Assembly: GCA_905234865.1 (NCBI GenBank)
Contig: CAJOJE010000001.1
Location: 114,021-178,020 of the forward strand
DNA: 64,000 nucleotides
DNA from: Candidatus Gastranaerophilales bacterium
Lineage (GTDB): Bacteria; Cyanobacteriota; Vampirovibrionia; Gastranaerophilales; Gastranaerophilaceae
Direction: 5' to 3'
The number at the start of each line of letters is the position of its first letter. The first letter of the stretch is position 1. Below the pieces are notes generated by a model. That model made no database searches and was not told the DNA's origin. It saw only the letters and a list, made by a program, of their open reading frames with translations. Position numbers and translations under genes: made by a program. This document shows positions 42,742-59,487 of the stretch, piece after piece.

Positions 42742-42758
42742 TTTTCCTCCTGTAATTT

Positions 42759-42822
42759 AACATACAGAACAAGATTAAACTATCTGTGAGATTGAGATAG
42801 GAATAAATTTGTTCTGTATGTT
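42759..42822. repeat. perfect 14-bp inverted repeat (AACATACAGAACAA / TTGTTCTGTATGTT) with 36-nt spacer
   Basis: Read directly from the sequence. An inner 6-bp stem CTATCT/AGATAG lies in the spacer, and a third partial copy TCTGTATGT sits at 42853-42861. Confidence 0.8.
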
Positions 42823-42924
42823 TTATTTTACAATAAAAAGTTTTATTTTTGTGTCTGTATGTAAAATTTTTATGCTTTTATTCTTCTTTCACGCTAATGT
42901 TGTCCGTGCAAAGGAGGTTTTAGT

Positions 42925-43146
42925 ATGGAAGAAACCGGATACAATATTACTCTGAAAGAGTTTAAGCAGTTAAGTAAATGGGCAGAGGAAGTTTACAATA
43001 TTGCAGTGGTTGTTGATTATTTTTGTGAAACACAGTCGGATAAAGAAGAATGTTACAACTTGGCTCCGGTTGTGAAGTATTTGCATCGCGAAGCAGATTT
43101 GTTGAATGCATTTTTTATCGACCATGAAAAAGATATTGAAATTTAA
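42925..43146 (+). CDS. hypothetical small protein
   Basis: 73 aa ORF preceded by AAGGAGG. No recognisable family. Confidence 0.45.
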   Translation: MEETGYNITLKEFKQLSKWAEEVYNIAVVVDYFCETQSDKEECYNLAPVVKYLHREADLLNAFFIDHEKDIEI

Positions 43147-43192
43147 ACTGCGTTTAAAACTGGTTTAAAACCTTTTTAAACAGCATTTAAAA
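43142..43192. repeat. five TTTAAA(A)C units at exact 11-bp spacing
   Basis: TTTAAA starts at 43142, 43153, 43164, 43175 and 43186. Confidence 0.75.
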
Positions 43193-43282
43193 TTTGTGTC
43201 GGAATGATGCAAAATTTTGACATTGCACTTGATAATTTCCAAAACGCAATCGATTAATGTTAATGGCTGAAAGGAGTATCTT

Positions 43283-43483
43283 ATGATAGAAAAAGATTAT
43301 ATGCTGTATGGAACAAAGATTTTGAATTTAAAAACACAGGAAATTGGGTTACTGATTTGCTTATGGAAAAACAAATATGCTGATAAAACAGTAGATTTTG
43401 CCACCTGTGTAGATAAAACCGGCAAACGATACAATATTGAACTCGATAATATCAGAGGGTTTGAAGATGATTTTGAAAAATAA
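43283..43483 (+). CDS. hypothetical small protein
   Basis: 66 aa ORF preceded by AAGGAG. Its stop overlaps the start of the next ORF. Confidence 0.4.
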   Translation: MIEKDYMLYGTKILNLKTQEIGLLICLWKNKYADKTVDFATCVDKTGKRYNIELDNIRGFEDDFEK

Positions 43484-43700
43484 ATTAACTCGTGAAACTT
43501 TGGATATTCCGTATTCTGAATTCAGAAAAAAGTTTGCAAAAGAAATTCAGGATGCATTTGAAAGTTACCGTCAAACGCAGCTAAATAAATATTCTTACAA
43601 TTTTAAAGACGATAATTCTCTGGAATTCAATTTTTACTTTGAACTACAATGGAATTTTAACCATTTTGGTATGTCAAATTGGTACATTGAAAGAATGTAA
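43467..43700 (+). CDS. hypothetical small protein
   Basis: Start placed at the internal ATG (MILKNKL...), which overlaps the upstream stop and suggests translational coupling. Confidence 0.4.
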   Translation: MILKNKLTRETLDIPYSEFRKKFAKEIQDAFESYRQTQLNKYSYNFKDDNSLEFNFYFELQWNFNHFGMSNWYIERM

Positions 43701-43703
43701 AGG

Positions 43704-44327
43704 TTAAATATTTTGTTTAATAAAATCAAATAAATTTTTTGCAATTATTCTATGTGAGGATTCGTCATAATGCAAACCATCAATATCCGAAGGTGTTGCA
43801 AATTCATTTATATCAAAATATTTACAGCCATTTTTGTTTGCAATTTGTTTAAAAAATTTTCCGACTTCTTTTGATTTAATAATACTTGTTTCATCAAATT
43901 GGCAATTAAAATATCCTTCTAAAATTTTTTCACTTAAAACAACAGGCGGAATAATAATTATATTTTTTACTTTTTGTTGAGCTAATTTGATTAAATTTTC
44001 CAAGCCCTTCTCTATTGTTTCAAAACTTATATCATATTGAGATTGCAAATCATTTGTACCAACGGCAAGAATTAGTATATCTATATTATCAATTTCTAAA
44101 AATATCTTAGGAAAATGTTTTTGAGCAGAAAATAAAATGCCGTCAGGATTATCAACAAAACCAGTTCTGTTACACATTCCCTCATTTATAACTTTATATC
44201 CTGTTCCTAATTTATTCTGTAAAACACCTGTCCAGCGAATATTCTCATCAAATGGTAAACTGTCTTTCGGATTATATCCGAATGTATTTGAATCTCCGTA
44301 GCATACTATGGTTAATTTTCTTTCCAT
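43704..44327 (-). CDS. SGNH/GDSL hydrolase family protein (second copy)
   Basis: GDSNTFGY, GTNDL and DGLHYD blocks. Paralogous to 32922-33530. Start placed at the ATG (MERKL...). Confidence 0.8.
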   Translation of the reverse strand: MERKLTIVCYGDSNTFGYNPKDSLPFDENIRWTGVLQNKLGTGYKVINEGMCNRTGFVDNPDGILFSAQKHFPKIFLEIDNIDILILAVGTNDLQSQYDISFETIEKGLENLIKLAQQKVKNIIIIPPVVLSEKILEGYFNCQFDETSIIKSKEVGKFFKQIANKNGCKYFDINEFATPSDIDGLHYDESSHRIIAKNLFDFIKQNI

Positions 44328-44446
44328 ATTGATATAATAACACAAAAATAAAGTTACTATTGTGATTTTTTTCCCAAATGATGACTTAATCGTGAAAAAG
44401 TGTTCGTGCTTTATACAATCTTAATGTTCTTTATTTATTACATGTA

Positions 44447-44475
44447 TTGACATGAAAAATTTTATATAATAATAT
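44447..44475 (+). promoter_or_regulatory. sigma70-type promoter for adhE
   Basis: TTGACA-N17-TAATAT, about 40 nt upstream of the adhE ATG. Confidence 0.5.
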
Positions 44476-44476
44476 T

Positions 44477-44499
44477 TTGATTAAGGAATTTAATCACAA
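44477..44499. promoter_or_regulatory. imperfect palindrome, candidate Rex operator
   Basis: TTGATTAA-GGAAT-TTAATCACAA lies between the -10 and the RBS. It only partially matches Rex consensus half-sites (TTGTGAA/TTCACAA or TTGTTAA/TTAACAA). Confidence 0.3.
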
Positions 44500-44515
44500 T
44501 TAAGGAGATAAGATT

Positions 44516-47167
44516 ATGCCGAAAGTTAAAGAAAGAACAACAGAAAAAACAACTAAAAATCAAGACAGAAGCGGATTAGTAAACAACATTGATGCTTTGA
44601 ACAATTTGCTCGAACGAGTAAAAAAATCACAAATGGAGTATGCAAAGTTCTCTCAAGAAGATGTGGATAGAATTTTTAAGGCTGCTGCAACTGCTGCCGA
44701 TAAGATGAGAATTCCTCTTGCAAGAATGGCAGTTGAAGATACAGGCATGGGTGTTTTGGAAGATAAAATTATTAAAAATCACTTTGCTTCAGAATATATT
44801 TATAACAAACATAAAAATGCCAAAACTTGCGGTATTATAAATGTTGATAAAATCAACGGTACAAAAACAGTAGCAGAACCTCTCGGTATTGTTGCAGGTA
44901 TTATTCCTACAACAAACCCGACATCAACTGCTATTTTTAAGTCATTAATTTGCTTGAAAACAAGAAACGCTATTGTATTTTCACCGCACCCTCGTGCGAC
45001 AAAATCTACAATAGAAGCAGCTAAAGTAGTTCTTGAAGCTGCTATTGAAGCAGGAGCACCAAAAGATATTATCGGTTGGATAGACGAACCTTCAATGGAA
45101 TTATCTGACGCATTATTACATCACCCCGATGTTGCTTGCATTTTAGCAACAGGTGGTCCGGGCATGGTTAAAGCAGCTTATTCATCAGGGAAACCTGCAT
45201 TAGGTGTTGGTCCGGGTAATACTGCCGCAGTTATTGATGAAACTGCCGATATCAGAATGGCTGTTTCTTCAATTCTTATGTCAAAAACTTTTGATAACGG
45301 TATGATTTGTGCTTCTGAACAGTCAGTAATCGTTGTTGATGATATTTATGAAGAAGTTAAAAAAGAATTCATATATCGTGGTGCATATCTTGTTAAAAAA
45401 GAAGATGAAAAGAAAATGATAGACCTTCCGTTTATTGACCCGGCAAGAGGAACAGCACATCCGTCTATTGTTGGACAACCTGCTCATAAAATTGCTGAAC
45501 TTGCAGGATTCAAGATTCCTGAAGATTCAAAAATTCTTCTTTGTGAAAGAGCAAAAATGGATTGGAATGATCCATTCTCAAGAGAAAAGTTATCACCGAT
45601 TTTAACTATGTATAAAGCTAAATCTTTTGAAGAAGCGACAGAAATTGCACACGAATTGGTATTAAAAGGCGGTGCAGGTCATACATCTGTTCTTTATACA
45701 GATGAAAGAAAATCAGAAAGAATAAATGCTTATGCAGAAAAAATGCCTTCTTGCCGAATCTTAATTAACCAACCTTCTTCACAAGGTGGTATTGGTGATT
45801 TATTTAACTTTAGACTTGAACCGTCTTTATCATTGGGTTGCGGTTCTTGGGGCGGTAACGCAGTATCAGGCAACATAGGTGTTGAACATTTATTGAATTA
45901 TAAAACTGTAGCTGAAAGGAGAGAAAATATGTTATGGTTCAAAGTTCCTCCGAAAGTATATTTCAAACGTGGTGCAACAGATTTGGCACTTAGAGAATTA
46001 CAAGGTAAAAAACGAGCTTTTATTGTAACAGACAGATTCTTATTCAATTCAGGTGCGGTTGATACAATTACAAAAACACTTGATGAAATCGGAATTGACC
46101 ACCAAGTATTCTTTGATGTTAAGCCAGATCCTACAATAGCAACTATTAAACAAGCTATGGAAATAGTAAAACCGTATGAACCTGATGTAATTATTGCATT
46201 AGGCGGTGGTTCACCAATGGATGCAGGTAAGATTATTTGGTTATTATATGAACAACCTGATACAAACTTTGCTGATATTTCAATGAGATTTATGGATATC
46301 AGAAAAAGAATTTGTCAAATTCCTGATTTGGGTAAAAAAGCTACAATGGTTTGTATCCCGACTACATCAGGTACAGGTTCTGAGGTTACACCATTCTCAA
46401 TTATTACTGATGAAAAAACTCATTACAAATATGCAATAGCAGATTATGCACTAACTCCTAATATGGCTATTGTTGACCCTAACTATGTTGACGGTATGCC
46501 AAAAGGTTTAACTGCTGCAAGTGGAATTGATGCACTTGTTCACTCTTTAGAAGCGTATGTATCTTGTATGGCAACAAACTTTACTAATTCAAATGCTCTT
46601 GAAGCAACAAAATTAGTATTCAAATATCTTGCTCGTTCATACAATGAAGGTGCTAACGATCCTATCGCAAGAGAAAAAATGCACTATGCCGCAACTATTG
46701 CAGGTATGTCATTTGCAAATGCTTTCTTAGGTTTATGTCACTCAATGGCTCATAAACTCGGTGCAATGTATTCTATTCCGCATGGTGTAGCTAACGCATT
46801 ATTAATAAGACAAATTATTAAATTCAATGCGGTTGATAAACCTACAAAACAAGCAATATTCCCGCAATATAAATTCCCTAATGCTAAAACTAAATACGGT
46901 CAAATAGCAGATGAATTGAATTTGGGCGGTAAGAATGACGATGAAAAAGTTGAATTATTGATTAAGGCAGTTGATGATTTGATGACAGAAATTAACTTGC
47001 CAAAATCAATAAGAGACTTCGGTGTTGATGAAGGTGAGTTTAAGGCTAATCTTGATGTATTGGTTGAAAGAGCATTTGACGACCAATGCACAGGTGCAAA
47101 CCCAAGATATCCTCTTATGAGTGAAATCAAACAAATCTTCTTAAATGCCTATGAAGGTATTGTCTAA
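44516..47167 (+). CDS. adhE: bifunctional acetaldehyde-CoA/alcohol dehydrogenase
   Basis: 883 aa with an N-terminal aldehyde dehydrogenase domain (catalytic-Cys region GMICASEQS) and a C-terminal Fe-ADH domain (GGGSPMDAGK, His cluster). Confidence 0.95.
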   Translation: MPKVKERTTEKTTKNQDRSGLVNNIDALNNLLERVKKSQMEYAKFSQEDVDRIFKAAATAADKMRIPLARMAVEDTGMGVLEDKIIKNHFASEYIYNKHKNAKTCGIINVDKINGTKTVAEPLGIVAGIIPTTNPTSTAIFKSLICLKTRNAIVFSPHPRATKSTIEAAKVVLEAAIEAGAPKDIIGWIDEPSMELSDALLHHPDVACILATGGPGMVKAAYSSGKPALGVGPGNTAAVIDETADIRMAVSSILMSKTFDNGMICASEQSVIVVDDIYEEVKKEFIYRGAYLVKKEDEKKMIDLPFIDPARGTAHPSIVGQPAHKIAELAGFKIPEDSKILLCERAKMDWNDPFSREKLSPILTMYKAKSFEEATEIAHELVLKGGAGHTSVLYTDERKSERINAYAEKMPSCRILINQPSSQGGIGDLFNFRLEPSLSLGCGSWGGNAVSGNIGVEHLLNYKTVAERRENMLWFKVPPKVYFKRGATDLALRELQGKKRAFIVTDRFLFNSGAVDTITKTLDEIGIDHQVFFDVKPDPTIATIKQAMEIVKPYEPDVIIALGGGSPMDAGKIIWLLYEQPDTNFADISMRFMDIRKRICQIPDLGKKATMVCIPTTSGTGSEVTPFSIITDEKTHYKYAIADYALTPNMAIVDPNYVDGMPKGLTAASGIDALVHSLEAYVSCMATNFTNSNALEATKLVFKYLARSYNEGANDPIAREKMHYAATIAGMSFANAFLGLCHSMAHKLGAMYSIPHGVANALLIRQIIKFNAVDKPTKQAIFPQYKFPNAKTKYGQIADELNLGGKNDDEKVELLIKAVDDLMTEINLPKSIRDFGVDEGEFKANLDVLVERAFDDQCTGANPRYPLMSEIKQIFLNAYEGIV

Positions 47168-47176
47168 ATTGGTTCA

Positions 47177-47222
47177 AAGGCTCTGCTCTACCATACTCTT
47201 GCAGAGCCTTTAACCTTTCTCT
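47177..47222 (+). terminator. rho-independent terminator after adhE
   Basis: AAGGCTCTGC / GCAGAGCCTT 10-bp stem followed by a T-rich tail. Confidence 0.6.
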
Positions 47223-47278
47223 TTACAGTAGTAAAATAAAAAATAAGAGTTGGAAAAGAACAAAGGAGTAATGAAAAA

Positions 47279-47911
47279 ATGAGTATTCCTGACAAAGTTG
47301 TAAATCGTTTAACCTTATATCATTTTATTCTTGATGATTTAAGAGAAGATGAACAATATATTTCAAGTTCAAAAATTGCACAATTATTAAAACTTGATAA
47401 TTCGCAAATAAGAAAAGACTTGAAATATCTTGATAAACCGGGTAAGGCTCGTTTAGGATATGATGCAAAAATTCTTAAAAAAGCAATAGAAGAAAAACTT
47501 GGTTTTAAGCAAACTAAAGACGCATTTATAATCGGAGCAGGTAATTTAGGTTCAGCTCTTGTAAAATACTCCAATTTTCAAGATTACGGTTTAAATGTTC
47601 TCGCTATGTTTGATAGCGATCCGAATAAAATTGGAACAACAATAAACGGAAAAGAAGTTTTTAATATAACAAAAGTAGGAAATTTATCCCAAAGATTAGG
47701 TGTTGATATTGCAATATTGACCGTTCCGAGAGAATCGGCAAAGAGTGTTGCAAACTATCTGGCAGGTTCAGGAATAAAGTATATTTGGAATTTTACCACT
47801 TGTATATTAGATGTTCCTGAAGATGTACATGTTTGGAACGAAAACCTAATTGGAAATTTTTTACAATTCACAAATAATGACGAGGTTAAAAATAAGAAAA
47901 ATGGCAAATGA
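47279..47911 (+). CDS. rex: redox-sensing transcriptional repressor Rex
   Basis: N-terminal winged-helix (NRLTLYHFIL..SSSKIAQLL), Rossmann fold GAGNLGSAL, 210 aa. Confidence 0.9.
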   Translation: MSIPDKVVNRLTLYHFILDDLREDEQYISSSKIAQLLKLDNSQIRKDLKYLDKPGKARLGYDAKILKKAIEEKLGFKQTKDAFIIGAGNLGSALVKYSNFQDYGLNVLAMFDSDPNKIGTTINGKEVFNITKVGNLSQRLGVDIAILTVPRESAKSVANYLAGSGIKYIWNFTTCILDVPEDVHVWNENLIGNFLQFTNNDEVKNKKNGK

Positions 47912-48134
47912 AATTAAAGTTTGTATGGGTAGTGCCTGTTTTGCAAAAGGCAACCAAGAAAATTTAGAATTTATTAAACAATATATTGAAGAAAACAATT
48001 TAGAATCCGTTGTGACAATCACAGGCTCATTATGTGAAGGCAAATGTGATATCGGACCAAGAATTATTGTTAATGATAAAGAATACACAAATGTTACAAC
48101 CGAAGATTTAGAAAAAATATTAAAGGGGCTCTAA
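47901..48134 (+). CDS. thioredoxin-like [2Fe-2S] ferredoxin (NuoE/HndA-like)
   Basis: Start placed at MANEIKVC. Cys pattern C-x4-C ... C-x3-C (CMGSAC ... CEGKC). Overlaps the rex stop by 11 nt. Confidence 0.75.
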   Translation: MANEIKVCMGSACFAKGNQENLEFIKQYIEENNLESVVTITGSLCEGKCDIGPRIIVNDKEYTNVTTEDLEKILKGL

Positions 48135-48135
48135 T

Positions 48136-49875
48136 ATGGAAAAACAATATCCTGTCTATACTCTAAAAAATGAATGTAATGACTGCTATAAGTGTATAAG
48201 AGGTTGTCATATAAAAGCGATTAAAATTCAACAAGGCTCTGCTTCGGTTATAAATGAAAAATGTATAGCTTGCGGACATTGTGTAAAAGTTTGCCCCGCA
48301 GGAGCAAAAAGAGTAAGAAGTGATATTGATAAAGTTAAAACACTATTAATTGCCGGTAAAAAAGTATATGTATCACTCGCTCCAAGTTGGGCAGGTGTTT
48401 ATAATATCCCAAAAGAAAGAATGATAGCAGTTCTTAAAAAACTTGGCTTTGCAGGTGTATCTGAAACAGCACTCGGAGCTCAAGAAGTTTCTATTCAAAC
48501 TGCTAAAATGTTAAATAATGCACAGAAAGGTTTATTTATATCATCGGCTTGTCCTGTTATTGATGATTATGTAAGACTTTATAAACCGGAGTTTGCAAAA
48601 TGTATAACCCCTGTTGCTTCCCCTGCTTTAACGCATTGTGCCTTATTAAAAGATATGTTAGGTGAAGATATAAAAGTTGTATTTATAGGACCATGCATAG
48701 CAAAGAAAAATGAAGCTGATGAACACCCTGATTTAATGAGTGCGGCTTTAACATTTGACGAATTAAACTATTGGATAAAAGAAGAATTTATTGATGTTGA
48801 AAATATAGAAACCGATGAAAGCTGCCATTTTGTTCCAGAAAGTTCTTATGAAGGAGCTTTATATCCTATTGAAGGCGGTATGAATGAAACAATTAAAAGA
48901 GTCGGTATTGAAAAAGATGATGTAACATTTATTGCAGTAAGTTCTTTGGAAGATTTTGATAAATCACTACAAAACATAAATCCTGACAAAGTTGAAAATA
49001 AGATTTTTGTTGAAGCATTAGGTTGTTCAGGCGGTTGTATAAACGGTCCTTGCTTATCAAGTGATAAATCAAGAATTCTGATTACATCAGATATTTATGC
49101 AAATACTCAATACAGAAATGAAGTTCCGAAAGAGCCAAGAAAAGTTGTTGAAATCGAATATATACCAAACCCGGTTGAAAAATTGGAATATTCTCTTGAA
49201 CAGGTTTCAAATGCACTTAAAAAGATAAGCAAACACTCGGAAGAAGATGAGCTTAACTGTTCAGGATGCGGATACGCAAGCTGCCGAGAATTTGTTAATG
49301 CACTTATTGCAGGAGATGCAGAACCTTCTCAATGCGTTTCTTATATGAGAAAAATAGCAGTAAGAAAAGCAGCTGCAATGTTAAGATGTATGCCTTCTGC
49401 CGTTGTTATTGTTGATTCTGATTTGCAAATCGTTGAAGCAAATGATTCATTTGAACACATGTTTTTATCCGAAGAAATGTATGAAGTATTTACATCTCGT
49501 CAAGACGGTATGACAGGTGCTTGTATAGATAGAATTGTTCCATTCCCTGAACTCTTTAAATCAGCTCTCGATACAGGCAAAGAAATTCATCAGGAGCACT
49601 ATGCAATAAAAGATAAAGTATATGACATAAGCATATTTACTATTGAAGATAATGAACTTGTTGGTGCCGTAATTTCTTATGTTACAAAATCAGAAATTGA
49701 TAGATCAAAAATTGCACAAAAAGCAAGAGAAGTTATTACCAAAAATATTGCAACTGTTCAGGAAATCGCAAGTTTATTGGGTGAACATATGGTTGAAACA
49801 GAACTGCTTTTAAGTTCTATCGCTGAAGGTTATGAAGGAGCAAACAAAGGAACAAACGAAGGGGATAAGAAGTAA
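48136..49875 (+). CDS. putative sensory [FeFe]-hydrogenase (HydS-type) with C-terminal PAS domain
   Basis: Two N-terminal 4Fe-4S motifs. H-cluster motifs are SSACP, GPCIAKKNE and GCSGGCINGP. An extra Cx2Cx4Cx16C motif is followed by a PAS-like domain. Confidence 0.85.
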   Translation: MEKQYPVYTLKNECNDCYKCIRGCHIKAIKIQQGSASVINEKCIACGHCVKVCPAGAKRVRSDIDKVKTLLIAGKKVYVSLAPSWAGVYNIPKERMIAVLKKLGFAGVSETALGAQEVSIQTAKMLNNAQKGLFISSACPVIDDYVRLYKPEFAKCITPVASPALTHCALLKDMLGEDIKVVFIGPCIAKKNEADEHPDLMSAALTFDELNYWIKEEFIDVENIETDESCHFVPESSYEGALYPIEGGMNETIKRVGIEKDDVTFIAVSSLEDFDKSLQNINPDKVENKIFVEALGCSGGCINGPCLSSDKSRILITSDIYANTQYRNEVPKEPRKVVEIEYIPNPVEKLEYSLEQVSNALKKISKHSEEDELNCSGCGYASCREFVNALIAGDAEPSQCVSYMRKIAVRKAAAMLRCMPSAVVIVDSDLQIVEANDSFEHMFLSEEMYEVFTSRQDGMTGACIDRIVPFPELFKSALDTGKEIHQEHYAIKDKVYDISIFTIEDNELVGAVISYVTKSEIDRSKIAQKAREVITKNIATVQEIASLLGEHMVETELLLSSIAEGYEGANKGTNEGDKK

Positions 49876-51032: not shown

Positions 51033-51102
51033 ATTGTGCCGCAGAAACAAAAATGTTGAATTTTTGTTTCGAGGTACACAAATTAATAAAAGGAGTCAAA
51101 AA

Positions 51103-51363
51103 ATGGAAAAGATTTCAGTAAAAGTATGTACAGGAACAACCTGTTTCGTAATGGGTGGAGCTAATTTGCAAGAATTACACGACATTATTCCGAAAAAATA
51201 TGGTGATAAAGTTGAACTTACTGCTTCAAATTGCTTGGGATTATGCTCTATAAATTGGGAATATTCAAAAGCACCTTATGTTAAAGTTAATGAAGAAGTT
51301 GTATCTGAAGCAACTGCTGAAAAAGTTATAGAAGAAATAGACAGACAACTTGCAAAACAATAG
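51103..51363 (+). CDS. thioredoxin-like [2Fe-2S] ferredoxin (second copy)
   Basis: Start placed at MEKISVKVC, preceded by AAAGGAG. Cys pattern CTGTTC ... CLGLC. Confidence 0.75.
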   Translation: MEKISVKVCTGTTCFVMGGANLQELHDIIPKKYGDKVELTASNCLGLCSINWEYSKAPYVKVNEEVVSEATAEKVIEEIDRQLAKQ

Positions 51364-51373
51364 GAATTTTTAA

Positions 51374-52828
51374 ATGAATAATTTAGGACAAGCGATACAC
51401 ATAAAAAAAGAAATTTTAGTCAGAATAATTAAGGCTTTTTTATCCGATGATTTTGAACATCAGGCAAGACTAATTCCTTATGATATGCGACCAAAAGGAA
51501 TGGAAGTCCCTTATAGGTGTTGTGTTTATAAAGAACGTGCCATTATAAAAGACAGAACTATTGCAGGACTCGGTTTCCCTATTGAAGAAGATGATGAAAG
51601 AGTATCGCTATCCGATTATGCAAAACAAGCATTAGAAAGAACTCAAATCAGCGAAAAGAATTTGACCGTTCTTCAAGCCGCTTGTAAGGGTTGTGCTACC
51701 AATAGAATTTATGTAACTGATTTATGTCAGGGCTGTGTTGCAAGACCTTGCCAAACCACTTGTAAATTCGGTGCAATTTCTATTGTAAACGGAAGATCCG
51801 TTATTGATGATACAAAATGCAAAAAATGTCAGATGTGCGTTAATGCTTGTCCTTATAAAGCTATTGTAAAAATTTCAGTTCCCTGTGAAGATTCCTGTCC
51901 TGTCGGAGCAATAAAGAAAGATGAAACAGGGTTTGCAAGCATAGATTATGATAAATGTATAAATTGCGGAAGATGTACTGCCGCTTGTCCGTTTGGTGCG
52001 GTTCACGAAAGAAGTCAAATTATTGATATATTAAAAGCAATTAAATCCGATAAAAAAGTAATCGCAATGATAGCACCTTCAATAATCGGTCAATTCCCCG
52101 GAAACATTTATCAATTAAAAACAGCAATAATAAATTCAGGTTTTGATGATGTTTATGAAGTTGCTCAAGGAGCAGATGTTACGGCAAATACAGAAGCAAA
52201 AGAATTTATTGAAAGAATGGAAGAAGGTCAAAACTTTATGACAACTTCTTGCTGTGCCGGATATAATCAACTAATCAAGAAACACTTGAGTGAAATTAAG
52301 CCGTTTGTATCTGATACAAAGACTCCTCTATACTATACGGCTGAAATAGTGAAAAAAGAACACAGTAACGCAGTTACCGTTTTTGTAAGTCCATGTGTTG
52401 CAAAACGTGCAGAAGGATATGAAAACCCAAATGTCGATTATGTTATGAGTTATGAAGAACTTGGTGCTTTATTTGTTGCAAAGAAAATTCAAATTACAGA
52501 ATTGGAAGAAAGCAAATATATTGTTGAATCTTCTAAACAAGGTCGTAATTTTGGATATTCAGGCGGTGTAGCCGAATCAGTTAAAAAATCTCTTAAAGAT
52601 GAAGATTCTGTTAAGCCCTGTATAATAAACGGATTAAATAAAGACAGTATAAAACAGTTAAAGAAATATGCAGCAAGCGGAGTTTGCGAAGGCTGTAATT
52701 TGGTTGAAGTTATGTGCTGTGAAGGCGGTTGCATTGGCGGTAATGCAACATTAAATAATCAAAAAACCGCCAAAAAGTTAATTGATAATTTTACTCAAAA
52801 CAGTGAAGATATTAAAAAGGTAGAATAA
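51374..52828 (+). CDS. [FeFe]-hydrogenase, catalytic type with multiple N-terminal 4Fe-4S motifs
   Basis: H-cluster motifs TSCCAG, SPCVAKRAE and EVMCCEGGCIGG. Several CxxCxxCxxxCP ferredoxin motifs. 484 aa. Confidence 0.88.
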   Translation: MNNLGQAIHIKKEILVRIIKAFLSDDFEHQARLIPYDMRPKGMEVPYRCCVYKERAIIKDRTIAGLGFPIEEDDERVSLSDYAKQALERTQISEKNLTVLQAACKGCATNRIYVTDLCQGCVARPCQTTCKFGAISIVNGRSVIDDTKCKKCQMCVNACPYKAIVKISVPCEDSCPVGAIKKDETGFASIDYDKCINCGRCTAACPFGAVHERSQIIDILKAIKSDKKVIAMIAPSIIGQFPGNIYQLKTAIINSGFDDVYEVAQGADVTANTEAKEFIERMEEGQNFMTTSCCAGYNQLIKKHLSEIKPFVSDTKTPLYYTAEIVKKEHSNAVTVFVSPCVAKRAEGYENPNVDYVMSYEELGALFVAKKIQITELEESKYIVESSKQGRNFGYSGGVAESVKKSLKDEDSVKPCIINGLNKDSIKQLKKYAASGVCEGCNLVEVMCCEGGCIGGNATLNNQKTAKKLIDNFTQNSEDIKKVE

Positions 52829-53080
52829 ATGAGTGTATTTGAAGCAGGAATGATGATTTGTTTCGGTGTAAGCTGGCCTATTGCGGCTTGCAAAACATAC
52901 AAAGCAAAGAGTGTAAAAGGTAAAAGTTTAACATTTTCCTGCTTAATTCTTGTCGGTTATATTTGCGGAGTCATACATAAAATCTTTTTCTATTATGATT
53001 GGGTTTTATGGCTTTATGTATTGAATATGTTTTTCTTGCTTACTGATATGTTTTTACATTTAAAATACAGAAATAAGTAG
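52829..53080 (+). CDS. small three-TM membrane protein (PQ-loop/SemiSWEET-like?)
   Basis: 83 aa whose ATG directly follows the hydrogenase stop. The SWPIAACKTYKAKSVKGKSL segment is reminiscent of PQ-loop motifs, but this assignment is weak. Confidence 0.45.
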   Translation: MSVFEAGMMICFGVSWPIAACKTYKAKSVKGKSLTFSCLILVGYICGVIHKIFFYYDWVLWLYVLNMFFLLTDMFLHLKYRNK

Positions 53081-53293
53081 TTTGTGTTTATTATAAAAAG
53101 GGGCGTGTATGGTGTCAATTAACAAATCTGAAAAAGAAATTAAAAAGATAAAAACAAATCAGGATACAATGATGATTTTTCAAAATATCTTGAAAATCAG
53201 ACAAATAAAACTACCGTAAACGGTCAAGATATAAAGCCGTTTTCGTGGTATAAGAAAATTTTAGGACTAATGAAATAAGAAAGAGGGGCTAAA

Positions 53294-54487
53294 ATGATAA
53301 ATTGGGAAAATGATTTAAACATTAATGAAGTCAGAGAAATCAGAACAAGAACAACAGTTTACTTTGGCTGTGGTGCCATTCAGAAGATAAATGATATTGC
53401 AAAAATCTATGCTGAACGAGGAATAAATAAAGTTGTTGTTATGTCAGGCAGAAACGCATATAAATCAACAGGTGCGTGGGGATTTGTTGAGAAAGCTCTT
53501 AAAGACAATAAAATTGAATACATAAATTATGATAAAGTTACACCAAACCCGACAACCGATGCTATTGACGAAGCAACCGCATTGGCTCGTGATTTTGGGG
53601 CAAAAGCAGTTATTACAATAGGCGGTGGTTCACCGACTGATGCCGGAAAATCTGTTGCAATTCTTTTAAAATACCCGAATGAAACAGGTAGCAGCTTGTA
53701 TGAATTCAAATTCACACCGACAAAAGCCGTTCCTATTGTTGCAATTAATTTAACTCACGGAACAGGAAGTGAAACAAACAGATTTGCAGTTGCAACAATT
53801 TTAGAAAAGAATTATAAACCTGCTATCGCTTACGATTGTATTTACCCTGAATTTGCTATTGATGATCCTGATTTGATGATAGGACTATCGCCAAAACAAA
53901 CAAGATATGTTTCAATAGATGCAGTTAATCACGTAATAGAAGCTGCAACATCAACAGTTGCTTCACCATATTCTGTAACATTAGCAAGACAAGTAATTGA
54001 ACTTGTCGGGAAATATCTGCCAAAAGCGATTCAAAATCCTGCTGATAAAGAAGCAAGATACTACTTGTGTTACGCTGCTTTAATGGGCGGAGTTTGCTTT
54101 GATAACGGATTATTACATTATACTCACGCACTTGAACACCCATTGAGTGCTATGAAACCTGATTTTTCACATGGTTTAGGATTGGCTATTTTACTTCCTG
54201 CCGTTATTAAAAATATTTATCCTGCCAAAGCAGAAACTTTGCAATATATACTTGAACCTATTGTCAAAGATACTACAGATGCTCAAAAAACAGCAGAAGG
54301 TGTTTATGAATGGCTTAAATCTGTTGACGTTCCAAACAAGCTAAAAGATGAAGGATTTAGTGAAGCTGATGTTGAAAAATTAACAGAACTTGCGTTTACT
54401 ACACCTTCTCTGGATGGCTTATTAGGAATAGCACCGACAAAAGCAACAAAAGAAGCTGTATCTACTATTTATAGAGAGTCATTATAG
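53294..54487 (+). CDS. iron-containing alcohol dehydrogenase
   Basis: GGGSPTDAGK motif, conserved His cluster (HALEHPLS..HG), 397 aa. Confidence 0.9.
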   Translation: MINWENDLNINEVREIRTRTTVYFGCGAIQKINDIAKIYAERGINKVVVMSGRNAYKSTGAWGFVEKALKDNKIEYINYDKVTPNPTTDAIDEATALARDFGAKAVITIGGGSPTDAGKSVAILLKYPNETGSSLYEFKFTPTKAVPIVAINLTHGTGSETNRFAVATILEKNYKPAIAYDCIYPEFAIDDPDLMIGLSPKQTRYVSIDAVNHVIEAATSTVASPYSVTLARQVIELVGKYLPKAIQNPADKEARYYLCYAALMGGVCFDNGLLHYTHALEHPLSAMKPDFSHGLGLAILLPAVIKNIYPAKAETLQYILEPIVKDTTDAQKTAEGVYEWLKSVDVPNKLKDEGFSEADVEKLTELAFTTPSLDGLLGIAPTKATKEAVSTIYRESL

Positions 54488-54504
54488 GTATGTAAATTTA
54501 CCAG

Positions 54505-54535
54505 AGCACCCGATGTATTTCGGGTGCTTTATCAT
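54505..54535 (+). terminator. rho-independent terminator after Fe-ADH
   Basis: AGCACCCG / CGGGTGCT stem followed by a T-rich tail. Confidence 0.6.
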
Positions 54536-54947
54536 TCCATTCCCAAAATTTCTCTTTCAATTTGTCGAACAATATCCGGAGATAAGCAGCCTGTTGGTTT
54601 TTGTTTGGGAGTTTGTTCTTGTTGCAGAGAGTCTGTATATTGTTTTACAAGCGGAATCTCTTTTAAAATATTTATCAGTGAATATATTTCCGGAGGAGGA
54701 GTTTTTTGATTATTATCAATATCCGTAGATATTTTCTGCATCATTTTTCTTGCAAAATCAAGCAACTCCTCGCTGAAGCGATATTTTGTATGCTCAACTT
54801 CAAATCGCTTTTCATCCCATTTGTATTCCTTTTTCCAATAAAATAAAATCCTGCGAGAAAGACCTAGTTCCAAACCAATCTCTGCCAGAGATTTTTGTCG
54901 TAAATGTACATATGTTCAGCTTGTGTCAGTTGGTTGTATTTTGTCAT
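54532..54947 (-). pseudogene. HTH DNA-binding gene split by a frameshift in an A5 run
   Basis: An ATG at 54947 opens a 27-codon frame (MTKYNQLTQAEHMYIYDKN..) that ends at a TAG at 54866-54864. The track ORF (54532-54873) begins in the middle of an HTH (..SLAEIGLELGLSRRILFYWKKEYKWDE) in another frame. One extra A at 54892-54896 would fuse the two. Confidence 0.5.
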
Positions 54948-54949
54948 CG

Positions 54950-55504
54950 TTATACCTCAAAAATTATTCTGTCTAAACTGTATTCATTCTTTTCTGTCAG
55001 CCGTTTTACATAAAAATTTGTGTAATTTTTAATCAAACCTTCTGCTTTACAGTATTTTAAAAATTGTTTTAATAAAGCCATTGTATTTTTTAACCTTCTT
55101 GGCTTAAAATCTCTTTCTAAAAATGCGTTATGAATAGCAATAATATCCTTTGTTTCAAATTTAGTAATGCTATTTTTCTTTAAAATCGGTATAATATCTA
55201 ATTTAAAAGCTGCTTTATAAATTCTGTTTGTTTTCTTGGAACAGTATTTTGCAACATAATTATTTATGAAATATTGAACGGCATCTTCTATTGTTATTAC
55301 GACTTTTTTGTTTGAATTATCAATAAATACACCGAATTTTAATCTTTCATCAGTTTCAACGTATTTATACAAACCCTGTTCAAAGACTATTTTACCCTCA
55401 TTCAAAAGGTGTTCAAGTTCTGTTTTACAATCGCATTCTGCAATCATTTCGATTTCATCAAGAGTAAATTCTTTTAAATGTTGCGCCAATTTTTCTATGT
55501 TCAT
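54950..55504 (-). CDS. stand-alone phage-integrase N-terminal SAM-like (core-binding) domain protein
   Basis: Residues from about 70-165 (TIEDAVQYFINNYV..KKTNRIYKAAFKLDIIPIL..ITKFETKDIIAIHNAFL..RRLKNTMALLKQFLKYCKAEGLI) follow the tyrosine-recombinase core-binding pattern. There is no catalytic R..HxxR..Y domain. Confidence 0.5.
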   Translation of the reverse strand: MNIEKLAQHLKEFTLDEIEMIAECDCKTELEHLLNEGKIVFEQGLYKYVETDERLKFGVFIDNSNKKVVITIEDAVQYFINNYVAKYCSKKTNRIYKAAFKLDIIPILKKNSITKFETKDIIAIHNAFLERDFKPRRLKNTMALLKQFLKYCKAEGLIKNYTNFYVKRLTEKNEYSLDRIIFEV

Positions 55505-56181
55505 ATTATTTGACTTATGACCTCCATATTTATTTCTGTTAAATTATTATCTTTAGCAAATGTTTCCATTTGGTTTATCAATTGAGCAATTTGCCTGAAC
55601 CTATTAAATTTTGAATGTATATATTCAACAGCATCGGGGGTAAATTTTATTTCTGATAATTGGTTAATAATCTGAGATAAATCATTCACTCCAAAGGTTT
55701 CAAATTTTAAAATCTCCGAGAATCTGTCATAAAGATGCTTGTATCTTTCGAGTTTTCTGTGTGCCAAACCCATTCCGATAAAAATTATCGGACAGCCGGT
55801 TTCATCGTGAATATCACGCAGAGTTTCAATTGTTTTGTAGTTATTCATCAAATAATCAATTTCATCAATAAAAATTATCTGCGGATTTTGTTTCAGCTTT
55901 TTAACCACAATATTAAAATTATCAGAAGTCAAAAATCTTGGAATCTCGTCAAGTTCTTTAACCATCTCTTCCAAGAGCCATCTGCCTGTCATAAGATTAG
56001 ATGCTCTTAAATAAATTCCGTCGTACTTGCATGCAAGCCATAATGCAGTTTGAGATTTTCCAAGTCCTGGCTCACCGTAAACAAGTCCCATCTTAGGAAT
56101 ATTCTTTGGTTTATTTATCAAATTTTCAACTAATCCGATAAAGTTTTTCACATTTTGCGTTTTTACAAAAATCTTATTCAT
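55501..56181 (-). CDS. AAA+ transposition ATPase (MuB/TniB/TnsC-like)
   Basis: Walker A GEPGLGKS and Walker B IIFIDEID. Overlaps the transposase stop. Confidence 0.8.
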   Translation of the reverse strand: MNKIFVKTQNVKNFIGLVENLINKPKNIPKMGLVYGEPGLGKSQTALWLACKYDGIYLRASNLMTGRWLLEEMVKELDEIPRFLTSDNFNIVVKKLKQNPQIIFIDEIDYLMNNYKTIETLRDIHDETGCPIIFIGMGLAHRKLERYKHLYDRFSEILKFETFGVNDLSQIINQLSEIKFTPDAVEYIHSKFNRFRQIAQLINQMETFAKDNNLTEINMEVISQII

Positions 56182-57880
56182 AAAGCAGTTTGTACTCCTT
56201 TGTTTGCTTAAACTGTTCTATCCACTCATCTTGCGGATTATGGATTATTAAGTATTCATATTTATCAGCATTATTTTTAAACATCTTTTGAACACCATTT
56301 AAACGGGTATTAAACACTTCTTGAAGAGGTAAATCTAAAGATTGTGTTTCTATTTTTGTTTCCAAGAGTTTTATATCTTCTGTTTCCAGATATTTTTTGA
56401 CAGATTCTACAGTTTTCTTTTTTAATTGCCGTTGCCTTACAATCTTCTGCTTATAATCCTCATAGTCTTTGACGTCGCCAAGTAATTTTACCATCGGATG
56501 CGTTTCAGTTACACGTTCTGCTGTGCATAAATATTCGCCTTTTGGGGTGAAAACCTTAATGTTTGTAATGTCAAATAAGTTATATTTAATTAGTACTTTA
56601 CTTTTAAATCCGTATAATCTTTCATCGAAATAATCGCAGTTTAAAAATCTGATTCCATTTCTTTGAATTGTTTTGACTTCGGTTGCAAGCATTAAATCGT
56701 CAAGAGTATCAATATCAATATTCTGCCGTTTTCTTTCAGATAAAACTTCTGTGATTGTTTTATCCGGAGCATTTGGGCAGGGTTGAGAATTCTTAAAACT
56801 TAACCACATATCAATCATGTTTATTGTTTCATCTATTGTTGGGATATATTCATTATGAAGATTTTTGTGAAATTTTTCATTTCGCATCATATATGCCGGC
56901 TTATTATTTATTGATGAACCTATATAACTTGGCAATAATTTTTCAAATCCTTCCTGAAATTCTTTAAAAAATCTTTCAATAACTTTTGCTCTTGCATTGT
57001 ATGGTCTTGCAAAGACTGTTTCTATTCCGAGTTTTGAATACAATCCCTGAAATCCTAATTCAGTAAATCCTTTATCATCAGTAAAATACTTAGCTCTAAA
57101 AGCTCTGCCGTTATCCTGATATACAACTTTCGGTATCATATCAAGATTGATTATTGAATTACGCAAAGCACTTGCAATACATTGTGTATTTTCTTCAAGC
57201 ATTATTTCATAACCGACTAATGCTGTTGATTTCCAATCCAAAAAGCCAACAAGAGTTGCTCTGCATGGTTTTCCTGTAAACGGATTTATTACCTGAAACG
57301 CTAATTTATGCCCATCAGCGACAAGAATATCCCCGACTTCAAGCAGACTTGCATCACGTTTTATATATGGTTCAACTTTGTCAGAAAGTGCTTTTTCTCC
57401 ATCACGTGCAAGTATCCATTTATCATAATTGTTATTTTTAAACCATTTTGCATATCTTCTGAATGTAATATCAGTTGGAATAAAGTTCTGTCCTTGTTCT
57501 TTTAATTTGTATTTCGTAAGAGCAATTGCTTTTCCAATAGACAATCTATTGGGGTGCAAAAGTAATCCCATAAATATTTTTATTTCGTCATCATTAAGTA
57601 CGGTTCTGTAATCATTAACACTACTATATTTATACTGTGGCAATAACTTCGTATAATCTTCTATTCCGTTTAACATTGCATACCAACGATGCAAACTGCC
57701 GCGAGATATTTTACCTATAATCTCAAACAAGTGTGAATTTGAAGTATTATACAATTTTACAAAATCATAATCAGCTTGAAGTTTGTTTTTTGATTTCTTC
57801 CTGAACTCAAGCCACTGATGAACTACATCAAGTCTTGCTAAAGCGATTTGTTTACATTTTTCGGGAGTAAATTCTGCCAT
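56174..57880 (-). CDS. DDE transposase, MuA/TnsB/TniA-like (rve core)
   Basis: Start placed at MAEFTPEK, preceded by AAGGAG. DDE candidates are VADGHKL, YQDNGRAF and AKVIERFF. N-terminal HTH region and a Mu-transposase-like C-terminal beta domain. Confidence 0.88.
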   Translation of the reverse strand: MAEFTPEKCKQIALARLDVVHQWLEFRKKSKNKLQADYDFVKLYNTSNSHLFEIIGKISRGSLHRWYAMLNGIEDYTKLLPQYKYSSVNDYRTVLNDDEIKIFMGLLLHPNRLSIGKAIALTKYKLKEQGQNFIPTDITFRRYAKWFKNNNYDKWILARDGEKALSDKVEPYIKRDASLLEVGDILVADGHKLAFQVINPFTGKPCRATLVGFLDWKSTALVGYEIMLEENTQCIASALRNSIINLDMIPKVVYQDNGRAFRAKYFTDDKGFTELGFQGLYSKLGIETVFARPYNARAKVIERFFKEFQEGFEKLLPSYIGSSINNKPAYMMRNEKFHKNLHNEYIPTIDETINMIDMWLSFKNSQPCPNAPDKTITEVLSERKRQNIDIDTLDDLMLATEVKTIQRNGIRFLNCDYFDERLYGFKSKVLIKYNLFDITNIKVFTPKGEYLCTAERVTETHPMVKLLGDVKDYEDYKQKIVRQRQLKKKTVESVKKYLETEDIKLLETKIETQSLDLPLQEVFNTRLNGVQKMFKNNADKYEYLIIHNPQDEWIEQFKQTKEYKLLYE

Positions 57881-58080
57881 GTGTATGCTCCTTTGCATAC
57901 ACATTAATCGCTCTTTGTTACGGAAACATCAAGTCCTAAATCTCTTTTCCGCCTGTCAAATCAAAGATTTGAAACGGCGGCATCGTAGTGTTTCGTGCCC
58001 TGCTCGTCTTGCCCTACAGCAAGCCGACACCGGCACTTCACACCGGCTCACGCATCTTAATCTCAGAGACATTTCGACAC

Positions 58081-58240
58081 ATATCAAAATGCAAGATAAT
58101 TTATTTTTGCACTATATTGCACTATTCTGCACTCAAAAAATATCAAACACCAAGCGAGATAGATGCTGAAACGAGTTCAGCATGACTAAATATCAGTGCA
58201 AAATGGTGCAAAAATCAGGACAAAAGTGCAAGAATAGTCC
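58081..58240. repeat. phased array of AGTGCA/TGCACT hexamer repeats around a central hairpin
   Basis: TGCACT at 58108, 58118 and 58128, and GTGCAA at 58197, 58207 and 58227, all on a 10-bp register, plus TGCAAG at 58090. Hairpin ATGCTGAA/TTCAGCAT at 58163-58183. Confidence 0.7.
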
Positions 58241-58343
58241 GGTACATCTTAAGACTATAAACCTGCCTCTATCGCCCTAAAATTAGGCATACTTACAACA
58301 AAACTCCCATCCAAACAGTCCGGAAAGGTTATACCTCCTTACT

Positions 58344-58370
58344 AAAAAACCCGCTATACTAAGCGGGTTT
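58344..58370 (-). terminator. rho-independent terminator after tRNA-Leu
   Basis: CCCGCT / AGCGGG stem followed by T6 on the minus strand. Confidence 0.7.
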
Positions 58371-58374
58371 AAAT

Positions 58375-58461
58375 TGCCCTGGGCCGGACTTGAACCGGCA
58401 CGAGGGTATTAGCCTCATTGGATTTTAAGTCCAACGTGTCTACCGATTTCACCACCAGGGC
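58375..58461 (-). tRNA. tRNA-Leu (anticodon UAA)
   Basis: The reverse complement begins GCCCUGGUGGUGAAAUCGGUAGACAC. Anticodon stem UUGGA/UCCAA with loop CUUAAAA, a long variable arm, and a GGUUCAAGUCC T-arm. Confidence 0.9.
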
Positions 58462-58482
58462 AGACAGACACTTTATATTTAT

Positions 58483-58510
58483 ATTTTATACAATCAATTT
58501 AAAATGTCAA
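58483..58510 (-). promoter_or_regulatory. sigma70-type promoter for tRNA-Leu
   Basis: Minus strand reads TTGACA-N16-TAAAAT, about 22 nt upstream of the tRNA 5-prime end. Confidence 0.5.
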
Positions 58511-58514
58511 AAAG

Positions 58515-58721
58515 TTATTTTTGAGATTCGATTAAATCATTGATTTCTTGCACCATAACGTCAGGATTAACTCCATGAACCTTGGCTCCTGCTTCTAAAT
58601 TTTCAAATCTCGCAGCAGCACAACCTATGCAGCCCAATCCGTATTTTTGGAATATTTCAAGAGATTCGGGATGTTCTTGAACTACTTCGATTATGCTCAT
58701 ATCTTTTGTTACTTTACCCAT
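58515..58721 (-). CDS. DUF1858 / hybrid-cluster-protein-associated redox disulfide protein
   Basis: Start placed at MGKVTKDM. Typical ..IIEVVQEHPESLEIFQKYGLGCIGC.. motif. Confidence 0.7.
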   Translation of the reverse strand: MGKVTKDMSIIEVVQEHPESLEIFQKYGLGCIGCAAARFENLEAGAKVHGVNPDVMVQEINDLIESQK

Positions 58722-58875
58722 GATTTTTGCCTTTTCTATTCTTAACATTAAGATTATACTATGAAAAAATTAAAATCAATGAAATATTTTAGAGAATATT
58801 CTCCGATTGGCGTCGCAGGGATAAATAGAGCAATCCGCCTCGAAAAAATTACTTTTCATCCGATAGAAATTACGT

Positions 58876-59385: not shown

Positions 59386-59487
59386 TTTAAACTCCTCTGT
59401 TGATTATAAAAATATTCTACACCAAAAACCCCGCCTTATAAAGACGGAGTTTTGTTTTGTATATGTATATGTATGTTAGTTTTGATT

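Follow-up and report, generated by a model that had tools for sequence, protein, structure and literature searches.

We analyzed a 64,000-nucleotide (nt) stretch of DNA from a Candidatus Gastranaerophilales bacterium, hereafter the window, which belongs to ENA contig ERZ27234819:k141_1578843 of a metagenome assembly. In it, a block of about 15.5 kb separates fprA, the gene of a flavodiiron protein, from a tRNA-Leu(UAA) gene. The block carries transposition genes at its tRNA end and a fermentation and H2-sensing gene cluster, and we describe it here as a transposon of 15,583 bp that occupies window positions 42,751-58,333. A sequence-only reading had drawn the limits at 42,759 and 58,343, within 8-10 nt of these ends, and its gene assignments (adhE, rex, hydS-PP2C-hydA, an iron-containing alcohol dehydrogenase (Fe-ADH) and a DDE module at tRNA-Leu) agree with Pfam and TIGR matches. 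Flanks and ends are listed below; loci used for comparison are cited by L numbers.

41,554-42,741, minus strand: fprA, host flavodiiron protein gene of the left flank, now served by a duplicated copy of its ribosome-binding site (RBS); Pfam ODP/Lactamase_B and Flavodoxin_1; directly after tRNA-Leu in eight relatives
42,746-42,750, no strand: left copy of the 5-bp target-site duplication (TSD) CCTCC (= GGAGG, the fprA RBS); same pentamer at 58,334-58,338, both termini defined independently
42,751-42,831, no strand: distal (tail) end of the element, 5'-TGTAATTTAACATACAGAACAAG...; outer ~50 nt conserved in the family
58,100-58,333, minus strand: head end, 5'-TATAACCTTTCCGGAC read from 58,333, then a conserved block; terminus from 37 junctions, alignment of heads
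58,334-58,338, no strand: right copy of the TSD CCTCC, from the sequence
58,345-58,373, minus strand: native terminator hairpin of tRNA-Leu(UAA); homologous terminators at the relatives' empty sites
58,375-58,461, minus strand: host tRNA-Leu(UAA); ARAGORN, Rfam

Composition of the block

The block differs sharply from the host backbone on either side of it (window 1-42,750 and 58,339-64,000), as the sequence-only reading had judged by eye. A Poisson likelihood-ratio change-point scan delimited a low-CpG segment at 42,701-58,800, with an observed/expected (o/e) CpG ratio of 0.83 within and 1.45 beyond, and the mean ratio of 1-kb windows was 0.84 in the island versus 1.46 in the rest (Mann-Whitney p=8e-9). 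For the island as a whole the ratio is 0.82, and all 109 host blocks of that length had ratios of 1.38 or more. Gene by gene, the 12 open reading frames (ORFs) at 43.7-57.9 kb have ratios of 0.62-1.14, versus 1.16-2.07 for all 36 ORFs on the left and 0.96-1.65 for the seven on the right. GC content at third codon positions (GC3) is 0.16-0.30 in the block ORFs versus 0.21-0.36 in the flanking ORFs (0.216 for the island and 0.301 outside it; p=3e-6), and the tetranucleotide L1 distance of the island is 0.251 versus at most 0.159 for host blocks. Total GC is nearly equal (0.33 in the island, 0.34 in the host; ~0.28-0.43 per kb across the window), and the signal therefore lies in dinucleotide and codon usage.

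The CpG ratio is 0.62-1.36 among 65 Gastranaerophilales loci examined, and the host backbone, with ~1.45 at 34% GC, exceeds all 65. Heads of the transposon family described below keep a ratio of ~0.9-1.0 across hosts spanning 0.71-1.46, and the ratio of the cargo (0.79) is similar to that of the L108 genome (0.76). This host is a compositional outlier in its order, and low CpG is no mark of a foreign phylum. The island stands out because the host is unusually CpG-rich, the element and its cargo having retained the lower level that is usual in the rest of the order. A compositional island may thus reflect an atypical host, not necessarily an exotic donor.

Insertion site and element ends

When species-representative genomes were scanned with the flavodiiron protein, matches (60-74% identity) came exclusively from Candidatus Gastranaerophilales/Melainabacteria, which fixes the lineage of the host. 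The adjacency of fprA and tRNA-Leu where the island is absent, which the sequence-only reading had asked to see checked, was found in the eight closest relatives (L022-L029, all Candidatus Gastranaerophilales). Their gene order is CoaE-arginase-p112-collagen-BFN-DUF1858-tRNA-Leu(UAA)-fprA-glycosyltransferase-response regulator-FAD oxidoreductase, and the gap between fprA and the tRNA gene is 43-104 nt and contains the tRNA terminator and the fprA RBS. In none of the 80 relatives did an island gene lie less than 10 kb from fprA. In the window, the element starts 41 nt beyond the 3' end of tRNA-Leu(UAA) and leaves both the tRNA and its terminator intact. Removing the element together with one CCTCC yields terminator-AGTAA-GGAGG-AAAA-ATG(fprA), a layout like the empty sites of the relatives. 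The TSD duplicated the fprA RBS, and fprA therefore retains one. The identical arrangement occurs on at least three contigs, and the insertion is probably recent.

In another sample, ERZ1667847, the flanking contigs break at window positions 42,853 (L002 start) and 58,377 (L004 end). We read these contig ends as assembly breaks at family-shared sequence rather than as an empty site. The ERZ1667847 strain keeps the distal 103 nt of the element beside fprA, and a different family member probably occupies its fprA/tRNA-Leu site. Elsewhere in the right flank, a host protein encoded at 59,488-60,858 has collagen triple-helix repeats and internal ~120-nt DNA repeats of 88% identity.

A repeat and k-mer search detected no simple terminal inverted repeats between 42.7-43.7 and 57.9-58.4 kb. 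The ends were therefore defined by comparing independent insertions. On the head side, family homology always begins at 5'-TATAGGTTTTCAGGACAG (37 independent junctions), of which TATAACCTTTCCGGAC is the variant in the window. On the tail side, the ~50-nt distal terminus ...CTTGTTCTGTATGTTAAATTACA-3' (window 42,751-42,800) is conserved in six other contexts and closes the elements in L016-21, L113, L135, L155 and L185. The distal end begins with TG and the head end with TATA, and no motif common to both was found. The terminal 23 nt of the distal end recur inverted at 42,807-42,831 to form an 80-nt palindrome, an inverted copy not seen in the other family members examined; with a further copy at 42,854, the tail has three copies of TCTGTATGT. 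The palindrome had been considered as a separate 80-nt miniature inverted-repeat transposable element and was reinterpreted as the element's own distal end. Position 42,852, the edge of the small-ORF module and the contig break of L002, was rejected as the tail terminus, as the TSD and the ~50-nt terminus lie 100 nt further out. The space between the module edge and the distal terminus is a second variable slot, which measures 100 nt in the window and, in L016, is filled by 6.2 kb of restriction-modification (R-M) and OLD/UvrD genes.

Transposition proteins

Inward from the head end, the element encodes four proteins (lengths in amino acids, aa).

56,174-57,904, minus strand: A, MuA-like DDE transposase, 568-576 aa; Pfam rve and Mu-transpos_C; phrog_310 E=2e-84 (profile 99-666)
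55,501-56,181, minus strand: B, MuB-like AAA+ ATPase, 226 aa, directly downstream of A; phrog_296 ('DNA transposition protein') E=3e-39
54,950-55,504, minus strand: 184-aa two-domain DNA-binding protein; Pfam, PHROG; profile match 2kkp E=8e-10
54,532-54,873, minus strand: 113-aa head protein, counterpart of a ~135-aa protein in other members; weak match to phrog_756 'DNA binding protein'

The DDE transposase recognized by the sequence-only reading could be specified as part of a MuA/MuB-type pair. The A ORF is 576 aa long, and the source annotation calls a 568-aa product. In Pfam it matches PF09299 (E=8e-14), with an rve match below its cut-off. Among profiles that include distant homologues, MuA (4fcy, E=9e-15) is closest to A, followed by ShCAST TnsB (2e-12). 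A is without ~95 N-terminal positions of the phage-type profile, and its catalytic residues D197, D264 and E310 are invariant in the alignment. For B, MuB (8xvb, E=5e-34) is the closest profile, with TnsC far behind (4e-11). The protein is without the N-terminal helix-turn-helix of MuB and has intact Walker A (GEPGLGKS) and Walker B (IDEID) motifs; a TniB Pfam match spans positions 115-182 only. At the level of sequence profiles, A and B are thus related to MuA and MuB of phage Mu, and the chemistry of transposition would be Mu-like, probably replicative or nick-join.

An AlphaFold2 model of the 184-aa protein (mean confidence score pLDDT, predicted local distance difference test, 82.6) comprises a winged helix and a four-helix integrase core-binding/SAM-like domain with no catalytic domain. 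Foldseek matched it to 3nrw (template modelling (TM) score 0.77) and to lambda Int bound to DNA (1p7d). A TniQ-like fold for this protein was ruled out by profile and Foldseek searches. The 113-aa protein is 96-100% identical in L113 and L110, and its ~135-aa counterparts have a weak DUF1804 match.

Phage structural, lysis and Gam genes are absent from the island. Judged by its gene content, the element is a phage-less transposon that uses Mu enzymes, not a Mu-like phage. An IMG/VR contig, L193, encodes an A protein 46-49% identical to that of the window beside Gam, portal, protease, minor-head and tail-completion genes, a gene set that identifies it as a genuine Mu-like phage. Another IMG/VR contig (L191:566-7,262) has an element-type A/B/225-aa set followed directly by phage-type A'/B' genes with full-length N-termini. 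This layout hints at an association of these transposons with Mu-like prophages. More tentatively, the elements might be satellites of Mu-like phages residing in the same host.

The transposon family

A search with transposase A gave more than 5,040 homologues at E<1e-10, the top 120 of which are 88-100% identical to it. The contexts of two A homologues (L006-L021) revealed a fixed layout: head end, A (568 aa), B (226 aa), the 184-aa and ~135-aa proteins, variable cargo and, on the opposite strand, ORFs of 77, 66, (70) and 73 aa. The window shows this layout too: its head runs from 57.9 to 54.5 kb, the same small ORFs lie at 42.9-43.7 kb, and the cargo slot is filled by the fermentation genes. 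One A protein, P0007, was found unchanged in three flank contexts, and the family has therefore been mobile recently.

Defense genes are usually the cargo of family members: L006-L021 carry GmrSD, Mrr, DpnII R-M, an OLD-TOPRIM protein with a UvrD-like helicase, NERD/DEAD helicases and RtcB/RlaP. Among ~100 members, only L110, from a different rumen sample, has the head variant of the window followed by the same Fe-ADH gene (93% identical), and metabolic cargo is therefore rare in the family. In the cargo of another member, a tRNA-His gene (L006:15,694-15,767; also L007, L009, L011 and L013) lies directly upstream of RtcB, an RNA ligase, and RlaP; these genes may form a tRNA-repair or counter-defense cassette.

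Nested or tandem insertions were observed at L016:3,449-9,688, L135:2,287-9,701 and in the L132 head region. The incoming copies end 18-47 nt within the head of the resident copy, and arrays therefore accumulate downstream of one tRNA. The layout is not uniform across the family: some sub-families place a 66-aa or DUF1804-like small gene upstream of A, like the early region of Mu (L139, L147, L148, L157, L165, L170, L172, L173, L175, L177, L180, L181, L187 and L189, with the tRNA 0.9-2.1 kb upstream). The literature that we could search contained no account of this kind of family, and one may exist elsewhere; this large transposon family, abundant in gut and rumen, is apparently undescribed.

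Two further features of the window copy can be placed by comparison with other members.

42,852-43,703, plus strand: tail module with ORFs of 73 aa (42,925-43,146), 66 aa (43,283-43,483) and 77/87 aa (43,437-43,700); homologous module in L006, L011, L013-18 and L113
57,941-58,080, minus strand: GC-rich, strongly folding insert of ~140 nt in the leader of the A gene; minimum free energy -51 kcal/mol (A-sense strand)

The 87-aa tail ORF matches phrog_34337 (E=3e-17). Right after the 73-aa ORF, five phased 11-nt repeats (TTTAARNNNNN) occupy 43,141-43,195; their position and period are kept in L006 and L113 despite sequence drift, and the array is probably a protein-binding or bent-DNA site of the tail module. 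In the head, a block at 58,100-58,240 that is highly conserved in the family consists of three direct TTGCAC repeats at 10-nt spacing, a hairpin and three inverted GTGCAA repeats, and it resembles an operator placed upstream of A. The leader insert has a 96% copy at the same place in L115 and fragments in L134, L139, L147, L157 and L172; most of the heads in the family have no such insert, which may be a small RNA element of a mobile or regulatory kind. Finally, a GC-rich motif, GGTTCRGCGCGAGTGAGC...GTGCGGAG, recurs beside element ends in several unrelated contexts (L124, L132, L136 and L141, between tRNA and head; L155:19,013-19,060).

Association with tRNA genes

Target choice was counted over the 84 family loci whose upstream sequence extends for 600 nt or more. 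In 43 of the 84, a co-oriented tRNA gene precedes the start codon of A by 355-570 nt, and a further locus has tRNA-Met at 900 nt. Another 12, from sub-families with small ORFs before A, have the tRNA 0.9-2.1 kb upstream, and 55 of the 84 have a co-oriented tRNA upstream. The strand bias is strong, with 72 upstream tRNAs on the same strand as the element versus one on the opposite strand. At least 15 tRNA isotypes are represented next to family elements. Between the tRNA end and the head terminus the distance is 25-250 nt (mode 40-60 nt). The element usually starts just after the terminator, and the longer distances often hold remnants of earlier insertions. At L131, the 3' end of tRNA-Gly(GCC) (CGTCTCCCGCT) is duplicated ~200 nt downstream, before the transposon head, which looks like the attachment (att) repeat of a different, integrase-type element at the same tRNA site.

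We searched the element for known means of target selection. No island protein matched TniQ or TnsD in Pfam, NCBIfam and PDB searches, no TnsA ORF lies between the element ends, and Pfam and Rfam detected no Cas gene, CRISPR array or Rfam RNA in the element. None of the five loci tested has a match of at least 14 nt between the element and its neighboring tRNA, which argues against a guide RNA; a guide RNA like that of CRISPR-associated transposons (CASTs) was rejected on this result and on the absence of an Rfam family from the element. The island encodes no catalytic tyrosine recombinase, having the N-terminal integrase domain alone, and its far border has no att repeat of the tRNA 3' end, the tRNA itself being intact.

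Two narrower proposals were also discarded. Specificity for class II (Leu/Ser) tRNAs, suggested by the first four contexts, failed when the 84 loci gave Ile, Gly, Tyr, Asp, Thr, Gln, Val, Met, His, Arg, Lys and Glu. A role of the 184-aa protein as an isotype-specific selector was dismissed, as one cluster of this protein (at least 85% identity) adjoins seven tRNA species. We infer that the truncated B protein, the small DNA-binding proteins or both would direct insertion next to tRNA genes.

Fermentation and H2-sensing cargo

The cargo slot of the window copy contains the following genes.

43,704-44,345, minus strand: SGNH/GDSL hydrolase; Pfam; not part of native clusters
44,516-47,167, plus strand: AdhE, bifunctional aldehyde/alcohol dehydrogenase; Pfam Aldedh and Fe-ADH; 93-96% identical to Gastranaerophilales chromosomal AdhE
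47,279-47,911, plus strand: Rex-type redox-sensing repressor; Pfam Put_DNA-bind_N and CoA_binding; 73-92% identical to native copies
47,877-48,134, plus strand: thioredoxin-like [2Fe-2S] ferredoxin, 85 aa; PF01257, gene called in L005; 68-85% identical to native copies
48,136-49,875, plus strand: HydS-like sensory-type [FeFe] hydrogenase, 579 aa; Pfam Fe_hyd_lg_C, FeS and PAS_8; motifs
49,875-51,032, plus strand: SpoIIE/PP2C-type phosphatase, overlapping the hydS stop codon; Pfam SpoIIE; 86-95% identical to native copies
51,103-51,363, plus strand: thioredoxin-like [2Fe-2S] ferredoxin, 86 aa; PF01257
51,374-52,828, plus strand: HydA, catalytic monomeric [FeFe] hydrogenase, 484 aa, complete; TIGR04105 520 bits (cut-off 450); 86-90% identical to native copies
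53,294-54,487, plus strand: Fe-ADH; Pfam; 91% identical to the L105 native copy

The SGNH hydrolase is, as the sequence-only reading had it, a second and divergent copy, 38% identical (BLASTP) to the core copy at 32,922-33,530. In the H-domain of the 579-aa hydrogenase, SSACP replaces TSCCP, and a C-terminal Fe-S motif (CSGCGYASC) and a PAS region follow. Ala at the proton-relay Cys position and a PAS domain typify sensory HydS enzymes (PMC10055695), and by its motifs the protein can be assigned to the sensory (group C-type) HydS. HydA has the motifs TTSCCA, SPCVAK and EVMCCEGGC.

In the most likely working model, the block is a self-contained NADH/H2-balancing unit made up of AdhE, Rex, the two [2Fe-2S] ferredoxins, Fe-ADH and both hydrogenases. 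Going by what is known of these families, Rex would sense NADH/NAD+ and HydS-PP2C would sense H2, and the two would jointly tune ethanol versus H2 output through AdhE and HydA expression. The best Rex-box-like site in the window sits upstream of adhE, but the Rex operator scan overall was not above chance.

Clusters of the same kind reside on the chromosomes of other members of the order. The array adhE-rex-2Fe2S-hydS-PP2C-2Fe2S-hydA-(ORF)-Fe-ADH lies among housekeeping genes in three Gastranaerophilales genomes (L102, GCA_017544545.1; L105-107, rumen; L108, GCA_051875015.1), with no transposition genes beside it in any of the three. Collinearity of the cargo with these native clusters begins ~105 nt before adhE and continues through hydA, with identities of 78-84% for nucleotides and 86-96% for proteins. 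Among named AdhE homologues, the closest (88-96% identity) come from Candidatus Gastranaerophilaceae and 'Cyanobacteria bacterium SIG31'. As a benchmark, one host protein is 56% identical to its L108 counterpart versus 90-95% for the cargo, a suggestive comparison that covers a single gene. By sequence similarity and composition, the best explanation would be that the cargo is a native redox module of the order, moved by horizontal transfer within the order and not acquired from Clostridia; this concerns the cargo in the window, not whether the order first obtained its cluster from Firmicutes in the distant past.

Discussion

We conclude that window positions 42,751-58,333 very probably represent a complete Mu-type transposon that sits between the tRNA-Leu(UAA) terminator and fprA and carries a fermentation module transferred within the order. 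The sequence-only reading had proposed acquisition as one unit, with an implied Clostridial source. Its one-piece acquisition stands, supported by the element ends, the TSD and the empty sites, but its distant donor does not, as best hits from the same lineage were an outcome that it had itself named as refuting. Clostridia are known to have HydS-PP2C-HydA and AdhE-Rex arrangements (in Ruminococcus albus and Thermoanaerobacterium loci), and low CpG together with low GC3 occurs in many Firmicutes. A packaged NADH/H2-balancing module of Clostridial (Firmicutes) origin is nevertheless very unlikely, given that the closest named AdhE proteins belong to the same lineage, that three Gastranaerophilales genomes have the full cluster, in collinear order, on the chromosome, and that low CpG is common within the order. 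Moreover, fermentative Melainabacteria characteristically have FeFe hydrogenases (bioRxiv 10.1101/328856). Vertical inheritance of the cluster in this genome, with a small transposon inserted beside it, would agree with a module native to the order whose chromosomal position differs among genomes, so that position is uninformative. It is extremely unlikely, as the cargo lies between head and tail modules and inside the TSD, tRNA-Leu directly adjoins fprA in the eight relatives, the CpG ratio of the cargo (0.79 versus 1.45) deviates more than that of any host block, and L110 repeats the head-to-Fe-ADH junction in another sample.

The neighboring tRNA, the integrase N-terminal (SAM-like/core-binding) domain of the 184-aa protein, the tail ORF that belongs to a PHROG and the resemblance of A and B to phage Mu proteins would also suit a tRNA-integrated genomic island or prophage remnant moved by a tyrosine integrase, with the transposase genes as incidental passengers. 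We hold this to be highly improbable: the island has neither a recombinase catalytic domain nor phage structural genes, the insertion lies 41 nt past an intact tRNA and terminator with a 5-bp TSD instead of a direct repeat of the tRNA 3' end, and the head and tail are conserved, with ends defined by junctions beside many different tRNAs. The probability that the contig is a chimera joining two organisms at the tRNA gene is close to negligible. The source is a metagenome assembly, and the contigs of the other sample break at 42,853 and 58,377, but such breaks are expected from shared family sequence, the identical arrangement is present on several contigs, both junctions combine a precise end with a matching 5-bp duplication, and the head/cargo junction recurs in an independent sample.

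Several observations weigh against a transposon of Mu type with intra-order cargo. The head and tail termini are weak inverted repeats, and our search yielded no transposase-binding sites. The TSD is demonstrated in the window copy alone, the nested copies in L135 and L016 giving no clean duplication. The sharp, end-like edge of the small-ORF module at 42,852 makes a composite history possible. The tRNA-to-head distance varies, unlike what a rigid protein ruler would give. As for the cargo, the donor is deduced from similarity and composition, not from phylogeny, and the host benchmark is a single gene.

The transposon resembles phage Mu in several respects: MuA and MuB are the closest sequence relatives of A and B, the genes follow each other inward from one element end in the order A, B, the TSD measures 5 bp, and the distal end, though not the head end with its initial TATA, reads 5'-TG...CA-3'. 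Unlike Mu, it is without structural, lysis and Gam genes, its A and B are N-terminally shortened, its cargo is defensive or metabolic, and its insertion is tRNA-associated, whereas Mu chooses targets near-randomly. With Tn7-like elements, above all the tRNA-homing cyanobacterial CASTs (types V-K, I-B2 and I-D), it shares a DDE transposase, an AAA+ regulator and small accessory proteins at one end, oriented insertion tens of nucleotides downstream of a tRNA, a 5-bp TSD and large, variable cargo that is often defensive; with cyanobacterial CASTs it also shares the host phylum, Cyanobacteriota. CyCAST homes 30-33 nt downstream of tRNA-Leu via TnsD (PMC10293859). By contrast, our searches of the element gave no TniQ/TnsD, TnsA, Cas gene, CRISPR array or guide-like tRNA match, its 184-aa protein has an integrase core-binding fold rather than that of TniQ, one element variant adjoins many tRNA isotypes at variable distance, and TnsB and TnsC, though of the same superfamily, are second-best structural relatives that score below MuA and MuB. 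The cargo has its own parallels. Like HydS modules (Thermotoga maritima HydS; the R. albus and Thermoanaerobacterium loci), it combines Ala at the proton-relay Cys, a C-terminal Fe-S motif and PAS with a catalytic hydrogenase nearby, and as in AdhE-Rex modules of fermentative anaerobes, rex lies next to adhE. It differs from both in that the whole module is inside a transposon and its nearest relatives are in Gastranaerophilales, not Firmicutes.

A broader proposal, which we offer tentatively and consider possible rather than probable, is that these elements constitute an undescribed, Mu-derived, capsid-less family that inserts generically and in fixed orientation downstream of tRNAs and does so with neither TniQ/TnsD nor a guide RNA nor a catalytic integrase. 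Insertion would likely proceed via the 184-aa adaptor, with its winged helix and co-opted core-binding domain, and the truncated MuB, and the family would shuttle defense and core-metabolism operons between gut Melainabacteria species.

Our findings indicate that, in a gut Melainabacterium, a module central to fermentation and H2 sensing can travel as mobile cargo between members of the order, and therefore that metabolic reconstructions from metagenome-assembled genomes of this group cannot assume vertical inheritance of such clusters. The family, very abundant with its more than 5,000 homologues in metagenomes of gut and rumen, links the two DDE/AAA+ systems that have been studied best, Mu on one side and Tn7 with the CASTs on the other, combining the enzymes of Mu with Tn7-like oriented insertion at safe sites and large cargo. 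If it were worked out how tRNAs are recognized in the absence of TniQ and a guide, the evolution of target selection in this superfamily could be tested by experiment, and the family might yield a compact programmable-site insertion system.

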